Part shown: piece by piece, positions 2,058 through 47,779 of the stretch
Layout: every line of letters starts with the position of its first letter
Position numbering within the stretch: position 1 is the first letter of the stretch
NCBI GenBank assembly: GCA_008501765.1
Contig: QQUE01000002.1
Span: 244,336-308,335, forward strand
Direction of reading: 5' to 3'
Length of the DNA: 64,000 nucleotides
Origin: Calditrichota bacterium
GTDB taxonomy: Bacteria; Zhuqueibacterota; Zhuqueibacteria; Zhuqueibacterales; Geothermadaptataceae
Made by a program: the position numbers and the translations under genes
Notes under the pieces: generated by a model
What the model saw: only the letters and a program-made list of their open reading frames with translations
What the model was told of the DNA's origin: nothing
Database searches by the model: none

Positions 2058-3008
2058 TTACGACCTGATTTGGTTTAGATTTAATCTGGTGAGTGCTGCA
2101 ACAGCCTGTTTAAGCTCATCAATTCGATTTCTTTTACTTTTTCCCTGAACTATAATTTTTGTAGTTCCCCGTTTCCAAATAATTTTATGGGATGTCCCGT
2201 CGGCAAATCCCAGGTCGGCAATGATCGTCCGGCCCTGTTTTTTCAATAAATCATGCAATGCACCATACCGGCCTTTGTCCCACCGGTCAAACTCAGCGTT
2301 GATTCGATTCCAAAGCGGGTATTCGTTAATATCTATATTAATATCTGAGGAGGCCAAGACTACTGAAACATCAGCCTGCAGGAAATCGGTATCTGTTTTT
2401 CCAGGATTTTTCTCCGGCCGCTTTGATTTTAAAGGCTCACTTTCGGACAGGGATACTTTTGGTGCATCCGCAAACTTGTCGCGCGTCTGCATCGTTGTTC
2501 CGACATCGAAATCCAGGTTTGACGGTCCACTGCTCAACCTGCCAACATCCAGATTGGCGCCAATGCTTTGCGATGCATCGAATCCACTGTTTCGGCCCCG
2601 TTCAGCCGAAAGCCTGGACAATTGATTCAACGCCGAATGGTTGAGCAAATTGGCAGAAACATCACTCAATTTCAGGTCAACGGACTCTACTTTTCGCCGA
2701 TTGTTCTCCGGCACGGCTTTTATCGGTGTCTCGATTTTTTCTGGTACAACAGCCGCAATATCTATTTTTTGCACTGGAGGTAAAACTTTCGTCATTGGTT
2801 TTTTTAACCGTTTAATGATTTCGACTTGCAGCGCCTCAAGCTCTGCCAATTTTATCTGCGAAAGATCACTCTTTCGCAATTCAATATGGCGCGCAAAAAA
2901 TGAAAAAGTTAGCACGATAACAAGGGAGGCCACCAAACTGCGATGCATGCGCCGCGAATGAAATTTTCTATATGTTTTGCCGGGATTATCAATGAGTTGT
3001 GTAATCAT
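2058..3008 (-). CDS. Membrane-anchored hypothetical protein (N-terminal TM anchor, Pro/charge-rich linker)
   Basis: 316-aa ORF. Short cytoplasmic N-terminus, one TM helix (LVASLVIVLTFSFF), an extended low-complexity linker and a C-terminal globular part. Architecture is TonB/anti-sigma-like, but no diagnostic motif was seen. Confidence 0.4.
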   Translation of the reverse strand: MITQLIDNPGKTYRKFHSRRMHRSLVASLVIVLTFSFFARHIELRKSDLSQIKLAELEALQVEIIKRLKKPMTKVLPPVQKIDIAAVVPEKIETPIKAVPENNRRKVESVDLKLSDVSANLLNHSALNQLSRLSAERGRNSGFDASQSIGANLDVGRLSSGPSNLDFDVGTTMQTRDKFADAPKVSLSESEPLKSKRPEKNPGKTDTDFLQADVSVVLASSDINIDINEYPLWNRINAEFDRWDKGRYGALHDLLKKQGRTIIADLGFADGTSHKIIWKRGTTKIIVQGKSKRNRIDELKQAVAALTRLNLNQIRS

Positions 3009-3204
3009 TTTATTTGCAATGAGATAGCAAGATGGCTATCAATTTCCTTTGGGATAAATGTATATGGATTTAATTGAACTTAAAATCAGGAATACAATTA
3101 TCTTCGTTTCAACTTTCCTGTTAATTTACACGTCCTCTTATGTAATGTTTTTTGTCATCCTGAATACAATTTGTGGAAATTCAACCGAGGCAATTTTAAA
3201 TATA

Positions 3205-4194
3205 TTAGAAACCACCCGGCATTGCTGCCGGTTTTCGTTTGCTAGATTTAATAAACAGGCATTGCAAAATCGTTTCCGGAGCCTGATAATTAAATTCTTC
3301 AAATTCCGTTGTTAGCCTCTGAAAATTTTTTAAATCGAGACGCAAGCCGTACAATCTTTCTTCACCAAACTTAAAAACAATAGGCCCGTGCTTGGGTGTT
3401 AAGCCCATCACAATCCCTTTTCCGAGAAAAATTGCCGGATACTTTTTCGTAGGATTAAACTCATCGATGAGATTAAATGTATCCGCAAAAGATAGCTTAC
3501 TAAGCCCCAATGGTTTCTGTACGGTTGTTGTTTTTTTACTGCGGGAAAGTAATTGGTAAATCTGATCAATTTTCCCTTTTTCAGTCAGAAGGAGCACTTC
3601 GTCCGCTTTTTCCAGCACTTTTATAAAAGCAGATTTTTCCATTGAAACCGGGATAGCCTGATAGTGGTCCTCCGGGTGCATAAATCGAGTCGCTATGCGC
3701 GTAAGTATCGTCACCGGGGATTCAATAGTCCGCCGCACTTCAATATCGAGTATTTTTACCTGATAACTGGCTACTTTAATCTGGTTATCCGCTTGCGGCA
3801 AATTTATATAAATTGTATAATCCCGCTTCAAATTATCCGGGCGTGGCGGTTTGGACTCCAAAAGCGTCAATAAATCGTCCCGCACTTCCACCTGTCTGTT
3901 ACGCAAAGACTGCAAAATCGCTCGGTGAACAGCCTGAATCGCATTCTCTTCGAGTTCGATTTCTTCATAGGCGCAGCCAAATGTTTGGATGTAGTTGTCA
4001 CGTTTCAAATCCGCTTCCAGCGGTTTGGTCATAAAATTTCGCATTATCTGCAAAGTTGTTGATGAATTATCGTCTTGCCAGCAGTTCCTTCGGGAGACAT
4101 CACCGTTTGATGATTCATTTCTTTGAAATCTATCGTGTGATTGAGCACAGGAGAGCATTAACATACAAAGTGTGAATCCAAAAATTCTTCTCAT
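3205..4194 (-). CDS. Hypothetical lipoprotein
   Basis: 329-aa ORF with a lipoprotein-type signal (…MLMLSCAQ). No recognisable domain. Confidence 0.45.
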   Translation of the reverse strand: MRRIFGFTLCMLMLSCAQSHDRFQRNESSNGDVSRRNCWQDDNSSTTLQIMRNFMTKPLEADLKRDNYIQTFGCAYEEIELEENAIQAVHRAILQSLRNRQVEVRDDLLTLLESKPPRPDNLKRDYTIYINLPQADNQIKVASYQVKILDIEVRRTIESPVTILTRIATRFMHPEDHYQAIPVSMEKSAFIKVLEKADEVLLLTEKGKIDQIYQLLSRSKKTTTVQKPLGLSKLSFADTFNLIDEFNPTKKYPAIFLGKGIVMGLTPKHGPIVFKFGEERLYGLRLDLKNFQRLTTEFEEFNYQAPETILQCLFIKSSKRKPAAMPGGF

Positions 4195-4656
4195 AAAAAT
4201 TACCTTAAATCAGCTCTGTAAAATATGTATAATAAAATAATAGCCGTTTTTGTGCAGAATCGAACGACGGCTCTGAAATGGAAAGCGGTGTTATAATGAA
4301 TACGTTCAAAGATAGCATTTTGCATAGCAGGATATTTTGTTTTAGCAATTTAATTTTACAAGGCCTTAGCACGTGAAATATAACCAGGTCAATTTGGATT
4401 TTTTGGACTTTGATTTTGGACATATTTAAAAATGTAAAATCAGGAGCGATATGGTGATAATAACACATGTTTTGGCAAAGACAGCACGTTTTAATTCCGT
4501 TATTTTGATCAAGTTGCAACCAAGTCGTGCAGATATTTTATGCTATCCTTATTCCCACTATTGATAATAGACTCGAATCTGCAAGGAGAACTCAAATCGT
4601 CCTTTCATAATTGGGTTAATTTTTCTTCAATTATTTCAGGCCGACGATATTGATTT

Positions 4657-4943
4657 ATTGATTAGGTCTTTAGCTCCGCGGCCTTTTTCTTAAACGGCCT
4701 TCGAAAAATGGCGTTAAGAACTTTTTGAGAATTTCCGTTAAGAATCATTTTTTGTTTGAGCGCAGCGAGTTTAAAATGATTTAGGAAATTCTCAAAAAGT
4801 TTAGCCGATTTTTCGTCAGCCTTGATTTTTTTGTTTCTTTTTTGATCAAGCAAAGCCAGCGGCCGGCGAAGCAAAAAGAAAATGCACAACACATTAAAAA
4901 TTTTGCAATTGAATTAAGTACAGCGGAGCTAAGGTCACAATCA
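4657..4943 (-). mobile_element. MITE-like non-autonomous element, copy A (~287 bp; imperfect TIRs; perfect 8-bp TSD AAATCAAT)
   Basis: Reverse-complement of 4657-4943 aligns almost base-for-base with 47268-47534. Ends carry imperfect inverted termini (TGATTGTGACCYTAGCTCCGC … GCGGAGCTAAAGRCCTAATCAAT). An 8-bp direct repeat AAATCAAT flanks both ends. Contains a ~20-bp internal indel relative to copy B. Confidence 0.7.
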
Positions 4944-5282
4944 ATTGATTTATTTGTGATCGATATTTTAAGAAACAATAAGTTAGGAGAATAATCTTGA
5001 CATAAGTGCGGATAATCTATATATTTCGCGATTCATTTAGGCTCAAATTTTGCAAAACTTACACTATATTTGCTGCACGGTATTTCCTCTTTATACATAG
5101 ATATCATGTAATATGCCGCGCCTTTATACGAATTTGGTAAAATTAAAACCCTGAATATAACGCAAATATCTGCCAAAGCACGTTAGTGCGCGGCGCTTTA
5201 ACATTGAGTCATGAATAATCGTACTTATAAATTTTGTTGTAAAATTTTTACTCTCATTTCGATTTAAAATACAGGATATCCC

Positions 5283-24862: not shown

Positions 24863-26173
24863 ATGGTTACAGAATCCTTCAACAAACGTTTTTTTAAATT
24901 AGCAATTCCAAATATTTTAGCCAATATTTCAGTGCCGCTGGTAGGATTGGTCGATACCGCCATGCTTGGCCACCTCCCCGAAATTCATTTTCTCGCAGGC
25001 GTAGCGTTGGCATCCGTTCTGTTTGATTATATTTTCTGGACTTTCGGCTTTCTGCGCATGAGCACCACGGGCTTAACCGCCCAGGCAAGTGGCAAAAAAG
25101 ATATTCACGAAATTTACGCGATCTCCTATCGTGGGTTTGCCATCGCCTTGTTTGTCGGTTTGATACTAATTCTCTTTCGCAACATTATCTCTGCAACCGG
25201 TTTTGGTTTATTATCCGCCGAATCACTGGTAAAATTATCTGGTGAAGAATATTTCGCAGCCCGGATTTTAGGCGCGCCGGTCGTTTTGTGCAACTATGTT
25301 TTTGTGGGCTGGTTTCTCGGGCGCGAGCGCAGCGATTTGGTGCTGTACATGACGCTCGTCGGCAATGTCGCCAATGTCATTCTCAATTATATTTTCCTTT
25401 TTATCCTGGGACTGGCCGCCGCAGGTGTTGGTTGGGCAACTACAATCAGTAATATTTTGGCATTTTTTCTGGCTCTGGTTTTCTATAAATATGGCGCAAA
25501 AAAAATCAGCGTTGACTGGAAATCGGTGTTTACTCGCGAAAAACTTGTGCCTTTATTTAGCCTGAACCGGGATATTCTCATTCGCACATTATTTTTAATC
25601 AGTTCTTTCGGCGTATTCACAAATATCAGCTCGATTTTGGGCGTGTCCATTCTTGCTGTCAACACGATTATTTTACGAATTCTGTCTTTCGCAGCCTACC
25701 TGATCGACGGGATTGCTTTTGCAACCGAAAGCCTCGCCGGGATTTTCAAAGGCAGCAACGATCATCAATCGTTGAAAAAACTGCTAAAAACAGCCCTTTT
25801 ATGGGGTGAAGTTTTTGCCGTAGGGTTCATTGCGATTATGTTTTTAATACCCGATTATTTTTATCCCCTGATGACGTCACACGCTGATATAATTCAGCTT
25901 TTAAAAGTATACGATTACTGGGTTTATATCGCACTAATTTTTAGCGCCATCGCCTATATTTTTGATGGTTACTTTCTCGGCATCACCAATGCAAAAATAT
26001 TACGCAACAGCATGGTTCTCTGTTTTGTGGTGTTCTTTCTGCCGCTTGCCTGGCTCAGTGTCAAGCTGCACGATAATCACATTTTGTGGCTGGCGATGGT
26101 GGTATTTATGTTCGGCCGGGCAGCAACTTTGGGCTGGGGCGCATGGCGGGAAATTAAAATACGTGCAAGCTAA
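24863..26173 (+). CDS. MATE-family multidrug/oligosaccharidyl-lipid efflux transporter
   Basis: 436 aa with 12 predicted TM helices. N-terminal FFKLAIPNILANISVPLVGLVDTAMLGHL is a classic MATE (NorM/DinF) signature. Confidence 0.88.
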   Translation: MVTESFNKRFFKLAIPNILANISVPLVGLVDTAMLGHLPEIHFLAGVALASVLFDYIFWTFGFLRMSTTGLTAQASGKKDIHEIYAISYRGFAIALFVGLILILFRNIISATGFGLLSAESLVKLSGEEYFAARILGAPVVLCNYVFVGWFLGRERSDLVLYMTLVGNVANVILNYIFLFILGLAAAGVGWATTISNILAFFLALVFYKYGAKKISVDWKSVFTREKLVPLFSLNRDILIRTLFLISSFGVFTNISSILGVSILAVNTIILRILSFAAYLIDGIAFATESLAGIFKGSNDHQSLKKLLKTALLWGEVFAVGFIAIMFLIPDYFYPLMTSHADIIQLLKVYDYWVYIALIFSAIAYIFDGYFLGITNAKILRNSMVLCFVVFFLPLAWLSVKLHDNHILWLAMVVFMFGRAATLGWGAWREIKIRAS

Positions 26174-26267
26174 TTGGATTGAGGGATAATCACATTTTGT
26201 GACTGGCAATGGTGGTATTTATGTTCGGCCGGGCAGCAACTTTGGGCTGGGGCGCGTGGCGGGAGAT
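26072..26267. repeat. Tandem direct duplication (period 113 bp, ~83 bp duplicated) of the 3' end of the MATE gene
   Basis: 26072-26154 (within the CDS, ends ~20 bp before the stop) and 26185-26267 (after the stop) are ~95% identical (GATAATCACATTTTGTGRCTGGCRATGGTGGTATTTATGTTCGGCCGGGCAGCAACTTTGGGCTGGGGCGCRTGGCGGGA…). Confidence 0.7.
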
Positions 26268-26290
26268 GAAAGTGTAGCTATATTAACAAT

Positions 26291-43711: not shown

Positions 43712-44846
43712 TTTGCAGGCCACAAGGGCCTGGGCTACAGGTTCAAACTAAAAAAATGGTGTTCGCCCCCTTGTGGGGCGGTACGTGGCATGGGCATTTA
43801 TTTGCCGCCTTTTATTTTATCCAACAAACTCTGTAAATTCTTCTGCACCGTTTGCGTGCCGGGATGGTCAGGTTTGCAGGCCACAAGGGCCTGGGCTACA
43901 GTATTAATATAAATAAAATTTCGTAGCCCGCCCCTTTGTGGGGCGGCGCGTGGCATGGGCATTTATTTGCCGCCTTTTATTTGTTCCAACAATCTTTGCA
44001 AATTACCCTGCACGGTTTGTGTGCCGGGATGGTCAGTTTTGCAGGCCACAAGGGCCTGGGCTACAGTATTAATATAAACAAAATTTCGTGGCCCGCCCCT
44101 TTGTGGGGCGGCGCGTGGCATGGGCATTTATTTGCCGCCTTTTATTTTATCAAACAAAATCTGCAAATTCTTTTGCACCGTTTGTGTGCCGGGATGGTCA
44201 GGTTTGCAGGCCACAAGGGCCTGGGCTACAGTATTAATATAAACAAAATTTCGTGGCCCGCCCCTTTGTGGGGCGGCGCGTGGCATGGGCATTTATTTGC
44301 CGCCTTTTATTTGTTCCAACAATCTTTGCAAATTACCCTGCACGGTTTGTGTGCCGGGATGGTCAGTTTTGCAGGCCACAGTATTAATATAAACAAAATT
44401 TCGTAGCCCGCCCCCTTGTGGGGCGGTGCGCGGCATGGGCATTTATTTGCCACCTTTTATTTGTTCCAACAATCTTTGCAAATTACCCTGCACGGTTTGT
44501 GTGCCGGGATGGTCAGTTTTGCAGGCCACAAGGGCCTGGGTTACAGGTTCAAACTAAAAAAATGGTATTCGCCCCCTTGTGGGGCGGTGCGTGGCATGGG
44601 CATTTAGTTGCCGCCTTTCATTTCATCCAATAAACTCTGTAAATTCTTTTGCACCGTTTGTGTGCCGGGATGGTCAGGTTTGCAGGCCACAAGGGCCTGG
44701 GTTACAGTATTAATATAAACAAAATTTCGTAGCCCGCCCCCTTGTGGGGCGGTGCGCGGCATGGGCATTTATTTGCCGCCTTTTATTTTACCCAACAAAC
44801 TTTGCAAATTACGCTGCACCGTTTGTGTGCTGGGATGGTCAGCGCC
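43712..44846. repeat. Tandem array of ~7 units (165/161/150 bp) each reproducing the last ~24 codons + stop + 3'-UTR hairpins of the adjacent TIR-NB-ARC-TPR gene
   Basis: Units start at 43712, 43873, 44038, 44203, 44368 (15-bp deleted variant), 44518 and 44679; the last unit is the real gene end. Two sequence types alternate (…AGTATTAATATAAACAAAATTTCGT… versus …AGGTTCAAACTAAAAAAATGGT…). On the minus strand each unit reads as a C-terminal peptide variant followed by TAA (QRNLQSLLGKIKGGK*, QGNLQRLLEQIKGGK*, QKNLQSLLDKIKGGK*, QKNLQSLLDEMKGGN*). A GC-rich hairpin (CCGCCCC-acaa-GGGGCGG) with a U-rich tail and a second hairpin (CAGGCC-cuugu-GGCCUG) follow each peptide. Confidence 0.9.
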
Positions 44847-47240
44847 CAGTTTTTCATTAACAATTTCCAGCGCCCGACGATAGAGCGGTTCCACGGTGGT
44901 CAAATCGCCTTTGTCCTGCAGCAATCCCGCCAGGTTGTTGAGATCAATTGCTACATCTGGATGATCCTGCCCCAATGCTTTTTCATCGATTTCTAGCGCC
45001 CGGCGGTAGAGCGGCTCCGCAGCGTTCAAATCGCCTTTGTCCTGCAGCAATCCCGCCAGATTGTTGAGCCTTAGAGCAACTTTCGGGTGATCCGGCCCCA
45101 ACGTTTTTTCACCTATTTCCAGCGCCCGGCGGTAGAGCGGCTCCGCGGCGGTCAATTCGCCTTTGGCCCGCAGCAATCCCGCCAGGTTGTTGAGCCTTAG
45201 AGCAATTTTCGGGTGATCCGGCCCCAATGTTTTTTCACCGATTTCCAGTGCCCGGCGGTAGAGCGGTTCCGCAGCGGTCAAATCGCCTTTGGCCCGCAGC
45301 AATCCTGCCAGGTTGTTGAGATCAATTGCTACATCGGGATGATCCTGCCCCAATGCGTTTTCATCGATTGCCAGCGCCCGGCGGTAGAGCGGCTCCGCCG
45401 CGATCAAATCGCCTTTGTCCTGCAGCAAATTCGCCAGGTTGTTGAGCCGAATGGCCACAGCCTCGTGTTCAAAGCCTCGCACTTTTTCGTCAATTTTCAG
45501 CGCCCGCCGGTAGAGCAGTTCTGCGGCGGCGTAGCGGGCCTGGCTCTGTAAAAAAAGTGCCATTTGATTTTGCAGGGTGGCGGTTTCTGTTAGCTGCAGA
45601 CCGTGGCGCGCAGCATGATCCGTCACACTCAATCCATGTGGTAAAAGCCTTTCACAATCTGGCCATGAACGGTAGTCCAGCGGATCCGTGTCTGAAGGAA
45701 AAACAGCATTTACCAATTCAACCGCTTTTTCAGCGATTGTCGCATATTTTTTCTCTGGCAAGCGATCGCGGGTCACGGCCTGCACCAGGCGGTGGCAGTT
45801 TAAATGATTGTCCTGCAAATCAATCAAAGCATAGCGCCGCAGCAAAGCCAAGGTTTCCTGCCATGCCAGCGGATCGGCCACTTTCTTTTGCAGACTGGCG
45901 GGCAGTTTGTCGCCCGCTGCGGTAAACAATTCCAGTGGAATATCTTGCGGCGCTAAAAAAGCGCATAAATTAAGCAATTCAATAGCAGCTTTATTTTCAT
46001 TTTTTAACTGCAGAAACGCCATTTCCCAGGCTGTGGCCACGGTTTCCGGGTAATCGGGTGGCTGGCCTTTTTTGAGCAATCTTTTCCGTTGGCCGGTAAA
46101 CAGTTTCAAATAAGCAGAAAAATCCAGGGCGCTGGCTTCCATGTACGCCGCTGCCTGTTCCAGCGCCAGCGGCAAATCGCCGAGGGCTTCAGCAACCTCA
46201 TGCGCCCCTTTTTCATCGTCGCAGCCGCTGCGCTGCCGCAGAAAAGCCACAGACTCGTCACGGTCGAGCACTTCCACGCTCAACGGCTGCGCCAATCCGC
46301 GCCAGTTGGGGCTGCGCGAGGTGAGAATCACGTGTCCGGCACCGCCCTGGGGCACAAACGGGCGCACGGCGTCGGCTTTTTCCACGTTGTCAAAAATCAG
46401 CAGCCAGCTCTGCGCACTGCCAAACCAGCGCAGCACAGCGTCTATTTTTGCATCCTGCTCGCGGGTGTCTTTTTCGGGCAGATCGAACCAATGTGCCAGC
46501 TCCGCTATTTCTCCGGCGAGCACCTGCGGTTCTTCAGCATTGAGCCAACAGATACAAGCGTATTCATTTTTGTGGCGGTGGGCGTATTCCAGGGCAATTT
46601 GCGTTTTGCCAATGCCGCCGAGTCCGTGTATCGCCTGCGGTTGGGTCACAGCGGCGTTTTTGCCGGCAGCCAGGGTGGTGTGCAAATCGGCTAAAATTTG
46701 TTCACGGCCGGTAAAATTGGGGTTGCGCAAAAAAGGCACTTTCCAAACCGGCGGCAGACTGCCGGGGAAACGGGGTTCGGGGCGTGATGCAGAAATTGTG
46801 GCCGGAAACGCTGGTTCCGTAGCTGGTTTGCCGCGTGCGTCAGTTAGCGCCTTGTCTATTTCATGCAGCAAAAAATCACAAGCATCTGAATTATTTTTTC
46901 CAACCAGATCGATATAAACGATGGCTTTTAGCATTCCTTTAAGTTCACATTTCTCAATGCACACAGGCAGAAGTTTTCTGTCCGTCCCGGTGGGATCATC
47001 CGCAAATGCAGCGGCCCATTCTGGCTGGGTGTAAATGGCGTTGAGAAAATGAGGTGATAAAACAGCGACCGTGCGGCGCGCTTCGGTGGCTGCCCTCTGC
47101 ATTTCGAGTACAAAATTGCTGCCTGCATGAAAATCCCATGCCTGGATAATTAATGAATAATCCGCTTTTTCAAGTTGCCAGGCAATCCATTCGGCCCACG
47201 CCTTGTCCGCGCGGGTGTAACTGATAAAAAAATCTTTCAC
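44769..47240 (-). CDS. TIR-NB-ARC-TPR STAND NTPase (bacterial NLR-like; candidate antiphage defence protein)
   Basis: N-terminal TIR_2-type domain (FISYTRADKAWAEWIAWQLEKADYSLIIQAWDF…NFVLEMQRA…TVAVLSPHFLNAIYTQPEWAAAF). NB-ARC P-loop GLGGIGKTQIALEYA, Walker B LLIFDNVE, VILTSR and GDLPLAL (GLPL) motifs. A C-terminal array of at least 7 near-identical 42-aa TPR repeats (…AAEPLYRRALEIGEKTLGPDHPKIALRLNNLAGLLRAKGELT…). Confidence 0.9.
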   Translation of the reverse strand: MKDFFISYTRADKAWAEWIAWQLEKADYSLIIQAWDFHAGSNFVLEMQRAATEARRTVAVLSPHFLNAIYTQPEWAAAFADDPTGTDRKLLPVCIEKCELKGMLKAIVYIDLVGKNNSDACDFLLHEIDKALTDARGKPATEPAFPATISASRPEPRFPGSLPPVWKVPFLRNPNFTGREQILADLHTTLAAGKNAAVTQPQAIHGLGGIGKTQIALEYAHRHKNEYACICWLNAEEPQVLAGEIAELAHWFDLPEKDTREQDAKIDAVLRWFGSAQSWLLIFDNVEKADAVRPFVPQGGAGHVILTSRSPNWRGLAQPLSVEVLDRDESVAFLRQRSGCDDEKGAHEVAEALGDLPLALEQAAAYMEASALDFSAYLKLFTGQRKRLLKKGQPPDYPETVATAWEMAFLQLKNENKAAIELLNLCAFLAPQDIPLELFTAAGDKLPASLQKKVADPLAWQETLALLRRYALIDLQDNHLNCHRLVQAVTRDRLPEKKYATIAEKAVELVNAVFPSDTDPLDYRSWPDCERLLPHGLSVTDHAARHGLQLTETATLQNQMALFLQSQARYAAAELLYRRALKIDEKVRGFEHEAVAIRLNNLANLLQDKGDLIAAEPLYRRALAIDENALGQDHPDVAIDLNNLAGLLRAKGDLTAAEPLYRRALEIGEKTLGPDHPKIALRLNNLAGLLRAKGELTAAEPLYRRALEIGEKTLGPDHPKVALRLNNLAGLLQDKGDLNAAEPLYRRALEIDEKALGQDHPDVAIDLNNLAGLLQDKGDLTTVEPLYRRALEIVNEKLGADHPSTQTVQRNLQSLLGKIKGGK
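44855..45560. repeat. Intragenic 126-bp near-identical tandem DNA repeats encoding the TPR units
   Basis: A repeating block (…CAGCGCCCGGCGGTAGAGCGGCTCCGCRGCGGTCAAWTCGCCTTTGKCCYGCAGCAATCCCGCCAGGTTGTTGAG…) is visible about 5-6 times. The same periodicity appears in the antisense ORF translations. Confidence 0.8.
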
Positions 47241-47267
47241 GTGATCTCCCCAATCAATTTAAACTAA

Positions 47268-47534
47268 TGATTGTGACCCTAGCTCCGCTGTACTTAATCT
47301 AATTGCAAAATTTTTAATGTGTTGTGCATTTTCTTTTTTGCTTGATCAAAAAAGAAACAAAAAAATCAAGGCTGACGAAAAATCGGCTAAACTTTTTGAG
47401 AATTTCCTAAATCATTTTAAACTCGCTGCGCTCGAACAAAAAATGATTCTTAACGGAAATTCTCAAAAAGTTCTTAACGCCATTTTTCGAAGGCCGTTTA
47501 AGAAAAAGACCGCGGAGCTAAAGGCCTAATCAAT
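47268..47534 (+). mobile_element. MITE-like element, copy B (~267 bp), 25 bp upstream of the STAND gene start; TSD TAAACTAA/TAAACTAT
   Basis: Near-identical to the reverse complement of 4657-4943. Imperfect TIRs. 8-bp flanking direct repeat with 7/8 match. Confidence 0.7.
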
Positions 47535-47779
47535 TAAACTATTTCATCCATTCGCTGAGCCTGTTCAGCCTGGTCACAGAGCTTGCCGAAGTGCACACCT
47601 ACAAATATTGAGCAGCAAGATATCGAAAATTTTTCCCTTCGACACTTCGACTCGGCTCAGTGCAAGCACGCTCAGGGAGCGTAATTTACGAACGCAGAGA
47701 GTGCCTTCTAAATGCTGAGAGAGGGCAAGCCCTTTGTGGATTGCATCAGCATTGCATAAAGGCAATGCACTCCTTATTC

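Follow-up and report, generated by a model that had tools for sequence, protein, structure and literature searches.

We found that two inverted copies of a short repeat in the window, by which we mean the whole 64-kb stretch of DNA that was analysed, belong to a multicopy element of a Calditrichota MAG that is bounded by imperfect terminal inverted repeats and 8-bp target-site duplications, has no coding capacity, and shares its ends with IS1595-family insertion sequences (ISs) of the same phylum. Taken together, these observations make it very probable that the element is a chimeric MITE, in which two IRR-type ends of the IS1595 family surround a captured hairpin module, and that it was mobilised in trans with an 8-bp staggered insertion. 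The MITE itself adds a Calditrichota member to the IS1595-related MITEs already known. A preliminary description, made from the letters of the window, had likewise read the repeat as a MITE, and every testable element of that reading held (terminal inverted repeats, 8-bp duplications, multiple copies and IS1595-family ends); two features that it missed are that the interior is a separate structured module, not derived from an IS, and that both ends are of the IRR type.

Each copy consists of two IRR-type terminal repeats with ~240 bp of non-coding, strongly structured sequence between them. In the mechanism that we propose, a DDE transposase of the IS1595 family, acting in trans, would bind both ends, excise or copy the element, and insert it with staggered cuts 8 bp apart, and repair of these cuts would yield the 8-bp duplications. 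The core would be a separate hairpin module, found alone in other phyla and presumably captured between two IS ends. The trans-mobilisation of these particular copies, the identity of the transposase and the capture of the core are what we infer from the evidence laid out below.

Two inverted copies with sharp ends and perfect 8-bp duplications

A window-wide repeat search placed copies A and B (Table 1) in inverted orientation, 42 kb apart, and the search together with pairwise alignment matched 4643-4956 to 47255-47548, inverted; the near-identical pair reported earlier at 4657-4943 and 47268-47534 is thereby reproduced, with the coordinates from our own alignment within 1 bp. Across 267 aligned positions the two copies are 97.4% identical, with 7 substitutions; they also differ by a single indel, previously put at ~20 bp and in fact 20 nt long. 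Two AAGCAAA repeats (4848-4854 and 4869-4875) bracket the indel segment, and this suggests that a slippage-type event may have separated the two variants. The element begins with TTGATTAGGYCTTTAGCTCCGC and ends with GCGGAGCTARGGTCACAATCAW, and the imperfect terminal inverted repeats that had been described for both copies are indeed present, with TTGATTAGGTCTTTAGCTCCGC matching TTGATTGTGACCTTAGCTCCGC, the reverse complement of the right end, at 18 of 22 positions. Similarity between copies A and B breaks off sharply at TTGATTAGG... on one side and at ...CACAATCA(A/T) on the other, and by pairwise alignment the sequences directly outside the element are unrelated between the two copies.

Table 1. 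Coordinates of the repeat copies, their parts and the instances of the hairpin module (positions are those of the window unless a locus is named).
Feature	Position	Strand	Remark
MITE copy A	4658..4944	+	287 bp, long variant
MITE copy B	47267..47533	-	267 bp, short variant
Indel segment, in copy A, missing from copy B	4853..4872	+	20 nt, not a multiple of three
Left terminal repeat of copy A	4658..4679	+	TTGATTAGGTCTTTAGCTCCGC
Right terminal repeat of copy A	4923..4944	+	GCGGAGCTAAGGTCACAATCAA
Target-site duplication, copy A left	4650..4657		TTGATTTA
Target-site duplication, copy A right	4945..4952		TTGATTTA
Target-site duplication, copy B, element's left side	47534..47541		TAGTTTAA (read on - strand)
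Target-site duplication, copy B, element's right side	47259..47266		TAGTTTAA (read on - strand)
Long imperfect hairpin, core (predicted)	4702..4815	+	paired internal-loop motifs GCGTTAAGAA / TTTAGC, twice
Conserved apical loop motif, copy A	4754..4772	+	GTTTGAGCGCAGCGAGTTT
Apical loop motif, copy B	47419..47437	-	GTTCGAGCGCAGCGAGTTT, one mismatch to pattern
Second module part	4821..4883	+	CCTTGA, T-rich tract, small polypyrimidine/polypurine hairpin, ATCAAG loop
Probably spurious 76-aa ORF, DWQ05_01720	4662..4892	-	annotated as hypothetical protein
Probably spurious 70-aa ORF, DWQ05_01910	47317..47529	+	
Module instances	window 4702-4883, 47330-47489; L027 1440-1640; L028 560-740; L029 560-730		
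Module instances, continued	L031-L037, L039, L041; L043 1140-1360		

The 8-bp duplications are perfect at both of the two copies, and the duplicated sequences differ from one copy to the other. The preliminary description had recognised both duplications but scored that of copy B at 7/8, a mismatch that disappears once the register is shifted by one base. An 8-mer match at this fixed spacing occurs by chance in the window at ~1e-4 per copy (empirical estimate), and two perfect duplications at two copies are therefore not due to chance. Neither a third copy nor a partial copy lies within the 64-kb window, and tblastn with five IS1595-family transposases returned no IS1595-type transposase from it, which agrees with the earlier statement that the window has no transposase. 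With lengths of 287 and 267 bp, and ORFs of 50-76 aa as the only ones present, both copies fall within the usual bounds for a MITE (less than ~500 bp, no transposase gene).

We also considered that the two copies might delimit a composite transposon. This reading is rejected for the 42 kb between them in view of the separate duplication at each copy and of the lack of a clear step in composition; G+C is ~0.38-0.46 over most of the 42-kb interval and rises to 0.50-0.52 only at 44-48 kb, over a TIR-NB-ARC-TPR gene. For the site of copy A, the nearest relatives by ProRS (L015, GCA_024275575.1, 87% identity; and L016, 86%) keep the gene order around proS and do not have the MITE in the spacer upstream of that gene. 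Apart from the proS promoter block, these spacers cannot be aligned with the window, being too diverged at the insertion point, and they yielded no empty site at base-pair level.

The ends match those of Calditrichota IS1595-family elements

When GTDB representative genomes and JGI metagenomes were scanned for exact matches to the 20-nt left end, at least six different insertion sites emerged, in Calditrichia/Calditrichaceae MAGs and metagenomes. The Calditrichia MAG JALSTK01 (L006, JALSTK010000007) carries at 2980-4030 a complete 1.05-kb IS with a 307-aa ORF containing Pfam Zn_ribbon_IS1595 and DDE_Tnp_IS1595, imperfect terminal repeats and the 8-bp duplication TACAAGAT; the left-end sequence of the MITE is the right end of this IS, and positions 2-22 of the former are identical to the IRR of the latter (21/21). 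A second IS of the same clade, with transposase P0039 (58% identical), is found in the Calditrichota MAG GCA_008501545.1 (L011, QQUM01000103; and L012), and its IRR, GCGGAGCTAAGGTCATAATCAA, agrees with the MITE right end at 21/22. The search for an autonomous IS with matching terminal repeats, which had been proposed as a check, thus leads to two IS1595-family elements in other Calditrichota MAGs, and of the two families named as possible sources IS1595 is borne out by the ends, whereas IS256 finds no support.

The terminal 21-22 nt shared by these ISs and the MITE read TGATTAGGTCTTTAGCTCCGC and GCGGAGCTAAGGTCAYAATCAA, and both ISs and MITE have 8-bp target duplications and termini that begin TTGATT / ATGATT. 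The 8-mer TAATAAAA adjoins the left end of the IS in L011 and its right end in L012, a placement that is consistent with an 8-bp duplication around termini TTGATT...AATCAA, the same as those of the MITE, and a further IS of the clade (L017) has an 8-9-bp repeat. The MITE duplications are thus of the 8-bp length found in IS1595-family elements. The IS in L011 itself has unlike 8-mers on its two sides (2094-2101 and 3157-3164), the left one recurring to the right of the IS in L012 (1052-1059); judging by this arrangement, L011 would be either an assembly chimera of two IS copies or the product of recombination between them.

Which end of the IS the MITE carries can be read from the transposase. 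In this clade the protein ends in ..TFAEL[KRM][TAS] and the stop codon lies within the IRR; the left end of copy A, read on the - strand, likewise encodes ..AELKT and a stop, like a transposase C-terminus. Since the end of the transposase and its stop are encoded in the IRR, the MITE ORFs end in AELKT or AELKA. The IRL is TTAA(A/C)TCCG(T/A) in the three IS types that have TTAGCTCCGC in their IRR (L006, L011, L017/L018), and in a fourth type (P0019; L019-L026) it is CCTTAGTCAG, with both ends diverging further. Both MITE ends read TTAGCTCCGC, and by this sequence criterion both are therefore of the IRR type, the transposase-stop end; the four clade IS types examined, in contrast, each have a distinct IRL. 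The MITE also differs from the ~1.05-kb Calditrichota ISs in its length of 267-287 bp, without a transposase gene and without internal homology. We found no significant similarity between the MITE and the L006 and L011 ISs beyond the terminal 21-22 nt, and the MITE is therefore not a simple deletion derivative.

None of the 120 best relatives of the L006 transposase is an IS1595 transposase attributable to the source MAG. P0039 was considered as the autonomous partner in that MAG and rejected; it is the sole named Calditrichota match, but it comes from another assembly, GCA_008501545.1. The autonomous partner may be missing from the MAG, not assembled, or lost.

Three side observations concern related ends. 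In the MAG CAVZAM010000003, labelled 'delta proteobacterium' (L004, 4320-4497), a GC-rich ~178-bp element starts with CGATTAGGTCTTTAGCTCCGC and ends with GCGGAGCAAAGTGCATAATCG and does not have the hairpin-loop motif described below; by its sequence it resembles a MITE of another kind, which has an IS1595 end of the same type but belongs to a different phylum. A lone 20-nt IS end lies beside cysS in L007 (Ga0209345_10047357, 2339-2358), with no partner end on the 3-kb contig. In several metagenomes the P0019-type IS1595 element repeatedly adjoins a DDE_3 (IS630-like) transposase gene (L019-L021, L023, L024), which suggests nested or adjacent insertion of two ISs.

An IS1595-related MITE has been described in Haloquadratum walsbyi, with ISHwa6 as its putative partner (165 bp, 7 copies, IR 25, DR 8; PMC3852290, Table 4). 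It resembles the present element in being short and multicopy, with IS1595-related terminal repeats and 8-bp direct repeats, and differs in its domain of life, in its sequence, and in that no structured conserved core was reported for it (PMC3852290). Duplications of 8 bp are also made by the prokaryotic IS1016 group of the IS1595 family and by eukaryotic Merlin, which belong to the same transposase superfamily (PMC10045372); the relationship of these to our element is distant, and their ends have no similarity to those of the MITE.

The element is multicopy in the source MAG

The 76-aa ORF of copy A is identical, residue for residue, to the hypothetical protein DWQ05_01720, encoded on a 1.3-Mb contig of a Calditrichota MAG. 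Six further paralogues occur in the same MAG (a 90% cluster plus one more distant match): DWQ05_01910 (which is copy B), DWQ05_02380, DWQ05_06160, DWQ05_17415, DWQ05_22255 and DWQ05_20830, the last a divergent paralogue with 76% identity. Seven annotated ORF paralogues are thus spread over five contigs of one MAG (locus tag DWQ05), multiple dispersed copies as a MITE would have, five of the seven being known from ORF sequences alone. The ends and duplications of these other five are presumably the same, to judge from ORF sequences that end in AELK[TAD]. Classified by the N-terminus of the ORF, four copies are of the long indel variant, two of the short and one divergent; both variants are present more than once, so both have been copied since the indel arose. 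In each of the seven paralogues the ORF continues into the terminal repeat (AELK..), which therefore belongs to the unit that was amplified in this genome.

The preliminary description had held that a search returning only the two copies and no related IS would point to a segmental duplication; what was found is seven ORF paralogues and matching IS1595-family ISs. We accordingly regard segmental duplication or recombination, as opposed to transposition, as a very improbable origin of the copies. It would account for there being only two copies visible in the window, inverted and 42 kb apart, but it is at odds with flanks that are unrelated directly outside the element, with a separate perfect 8-bp duplication at each copy, with at least seven copies across five contigs, and with ends shared with transposable elements.

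Logan contigs from SRR7585904 and SRR7585905, which encode ProRS and DUF2461 neighbours identical to those in the window, stop 28-30 nt inside copy A and copy B; breaks at this depth are the behaviour expected where a repeat interrupts k-mer assembly. The exact MITE was not found in GTDB representatives, JGI metagenomes and IMG/VR (scanned with the 20-nt end and a 26-nt core word), and scans of viral contigs for the MITE end and the core word gave zero matches.

The ORFs of the element look like annotation artefacts

The small ORFs of 76 and 70 aa noted earlier exist in copies A and B (Table 1), and the view taken then that they are probably non-coding is one that we share. The length of the indel is not a multiple of three, and it alters the N-terminal part and frame of the ORF; all three substitutions in the part shared by copies A and B are non-synonymous (3/3); the ORF is read off both arms of the hairpin; and its C-terminus is the terminal repeat itself, through which one paralogue (P0002) reads. 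No ORF homologue outside the source MAG was found among 5.8 billion proteins. On these sequence features the MITE ORFs look like annotation artefacts without coding function. The opposite reading, that the element is a family of small protein-coding genes of 70-76 aa as the MAG annotation has it, agrees with the occurrence of an ORF in both copies and with the seven annotations as hypothetical proteins. It is hardly credible in view of a 20-nt indel that changes the N-terminal frame, the 3/3 non-synonymous substitutions, a C-terminus made of terminal repeat, coding by two hairpin arms, the read-through of the end in P0002, and the lack of any homologue beyond this MAG in the protein set searched.

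The core is a hairpin module that recurs in other phyla

The element is predicted to fold much more stably than shuffled sequence (+ strand, z = -5.8; - strand, z = -5.7), and the predicted fold is dominated by a ~115-nt hairpin (4702-4815). In both copies the strand that carries the apical loop motif points to a downstream gene, which is proS in the case of copy A and the TIR-NB-ARC-TPR gene in that of copy B. Rfam returned nothing at gathering thresholds in the window, the element or ten related loci, and nearly all of the sub-threshold matches were to microRNA-precursor hairpin models. Consensus scans for an outward sigma-70 promoter or a terminator in the element did no better than chance, and a strong promoter-like site for proS lies outside the element (4997-5025). 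We also considered whether the core could be attC-like, a K-turn, an sso/ssi or a terminator, and to our knowledge none of these is a close enough fit to be proposed.

By blastn against PLSDB, the core is 72-75% similar to intergenic sequences in other organisms (Aureibacter tunicatorum pAT6; Chondrinema litorale plasmids; Ilyobacter polytropus pILYOP01, in 9 places; and Persicobacter replicons), with Ralstonia megaplasmids matched through a second query. Scanning IMG/VR for the apical sequence GTYTGAGCGNAGCGAGTTT brought in 12 more loci, and this apical loop recurs in Bacteroidota, Fusobacteriota, Betaproteobacteria and viral contigs; the second module part (4821-4883) is also conserved in other phyla. 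Across the module family (Table 1) the loop, (ACT)GTYTGAGCGNAGCGAGTTT, is nearly invariant and stands in phage, plasmid and chromosomal contexts without IS1595-type ends. The neighbouring genes are unrelated between instances (phage tail, terminase, cas7d/cas5d, patatin, transporter). In the papers searched, the loop sequence gave unrelated primer or vector matches only.

Perfectly complementary base pairs, 6-11 in number, directly flank 12 of 15 motif occurrences; stems were extracted as maximal paired runs, such that the 100% pairing is partly by construction and the presence of a stem beside the motif is not. The stem sequence varies between instances: at each of the eight positions closest to the loop, every one of the four Watson-Crick pair types is found in some instance. 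Three betaproteobacterial instances (L036, L041, L043) align over ~220 nt; their inner stems show compensatory changes that come in blocks, and around these three we found neither terminal repeats nor duplications that were convincing. Of 13 instances, 12 have the more stable hairpin on the motif strand (mean difference -9.9 kcal/mol), with 3-12 G-U pairs on that strand vs. 0-4 on the antisense strand. We take this strand asymmetry, computed from predicted folds, as the signature of selection on one strand, acting on RNA or on single-stranded DNA.

These features outline a candidate module, which may comprise a ~115-150-nt hairpin with the nearly invariant loop ACU-GUYUGAGCGNAGCGAGUUU. In many copies the main hairpin is followed by CAGNCUUGA, by a tract rich in U and by a small pyrimidine/purine hairpin whose loop is UCAAG. 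The module may extend across Calditrichota, Bacteroidota, Fusobacteriota and Betaproteobacteria, where it would be intergenic in phages, plasmids and chromosomes. As a leading guess, it would be transcribed as an intergenic RNA hairpin resembling ERIC, with a conserved loop that a protein or an RNA recognises; the alternative is a single-strand DNA signal. We put forward tentatively, as a possibility and not as the expected outcome, that the core is an undescribed strand-specific structured element present across phyla, here spread by a transposase as a functional RNA or single-strand DNA signal.

ERIC/IRU, Correia (CREE), RUP and BOX elements are small multicopy intergenic repeats with long hairpins that can be co-transcribed with their neighbours. 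These families are, as far as is known, limited to a genus or family, whereas the present hairpin loop is conserved across phyla, and Correia elements duplicate TA, not 8 bp; we know of no sequence relationship between the MITE core and any of them.

The existence of the module elsewhere raises the question of whether the hairpin, and not the pair of ends, is the unit that matters here: a transcribed repeat like ERIC, or a signal in single-stranded DNA, that spreads by its own means and beside which the IS1595-like ends would be incidental. The module does lack IS1595-type ends in Aureibacter, Chondrinema, Ilyobacter, Ralstonia and viral contigs, and it is multicopy elsewhere, as on pILYOP01. 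In the window, however, the similarity between copies ends exactly at the terminal repeats and is followed by the 8-bp duplications, and the fact that seven of seven ORF paralogues reach into the terminal repeat makes that repeat part of the amplified unit. We therefore think this reading improbable for the present copies, and retain that of a chimeric MITE.

Genomic neighbourhood and significance

The TIR-NB-ARC-TPR gene (44769-47240, - strand) has its GTG start at 47240, and the right end of copy B is 26 bp upstream of it; the interval between them (47241-47266) holds a ribosome-binding site only, and on this layout the promoter of the gene would have to lie inside or beyond the MITE. Copy B may, by its position, affect the expression of this defence-type gene. 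Directly downstream of the stop of the same gene, at 43712-44888, there are ~7 tandem 165-bp units, each containing a 54-aa ORF that repeats, in its final 23 aa, the C-terminus of the large protein (…DHPGTQTVQKNLQSLLDKIKGGK), an array that by its sequence looks like 3'-end cassettes of a defence-type STAND gene. A further duplication in the window is an 87-nt direct repeat (26072-26158 and 26185-26271, 94% identity), by which the 3' end of the ORF at 24863-26173 is duplicated 113 bp downstream.

The MITE accounts for seven 'hypothetical protein' annotations as artefacts, and its copies account for short-read assembly breaks in this population. As a MITE it is ordinary; the greater interest lies in its cargo, a hairpin loop conserved from Betaproteobacteria to Fusobacteriota and in phages, with compensatory changes in its stem. 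If the module is indeed undescribed, it would be a candidate for a new class of structured element, made of RNA or single-stranded DNA and widely distributed, and this MITE would be an example of a pair of IS ends serving as its vehicle.
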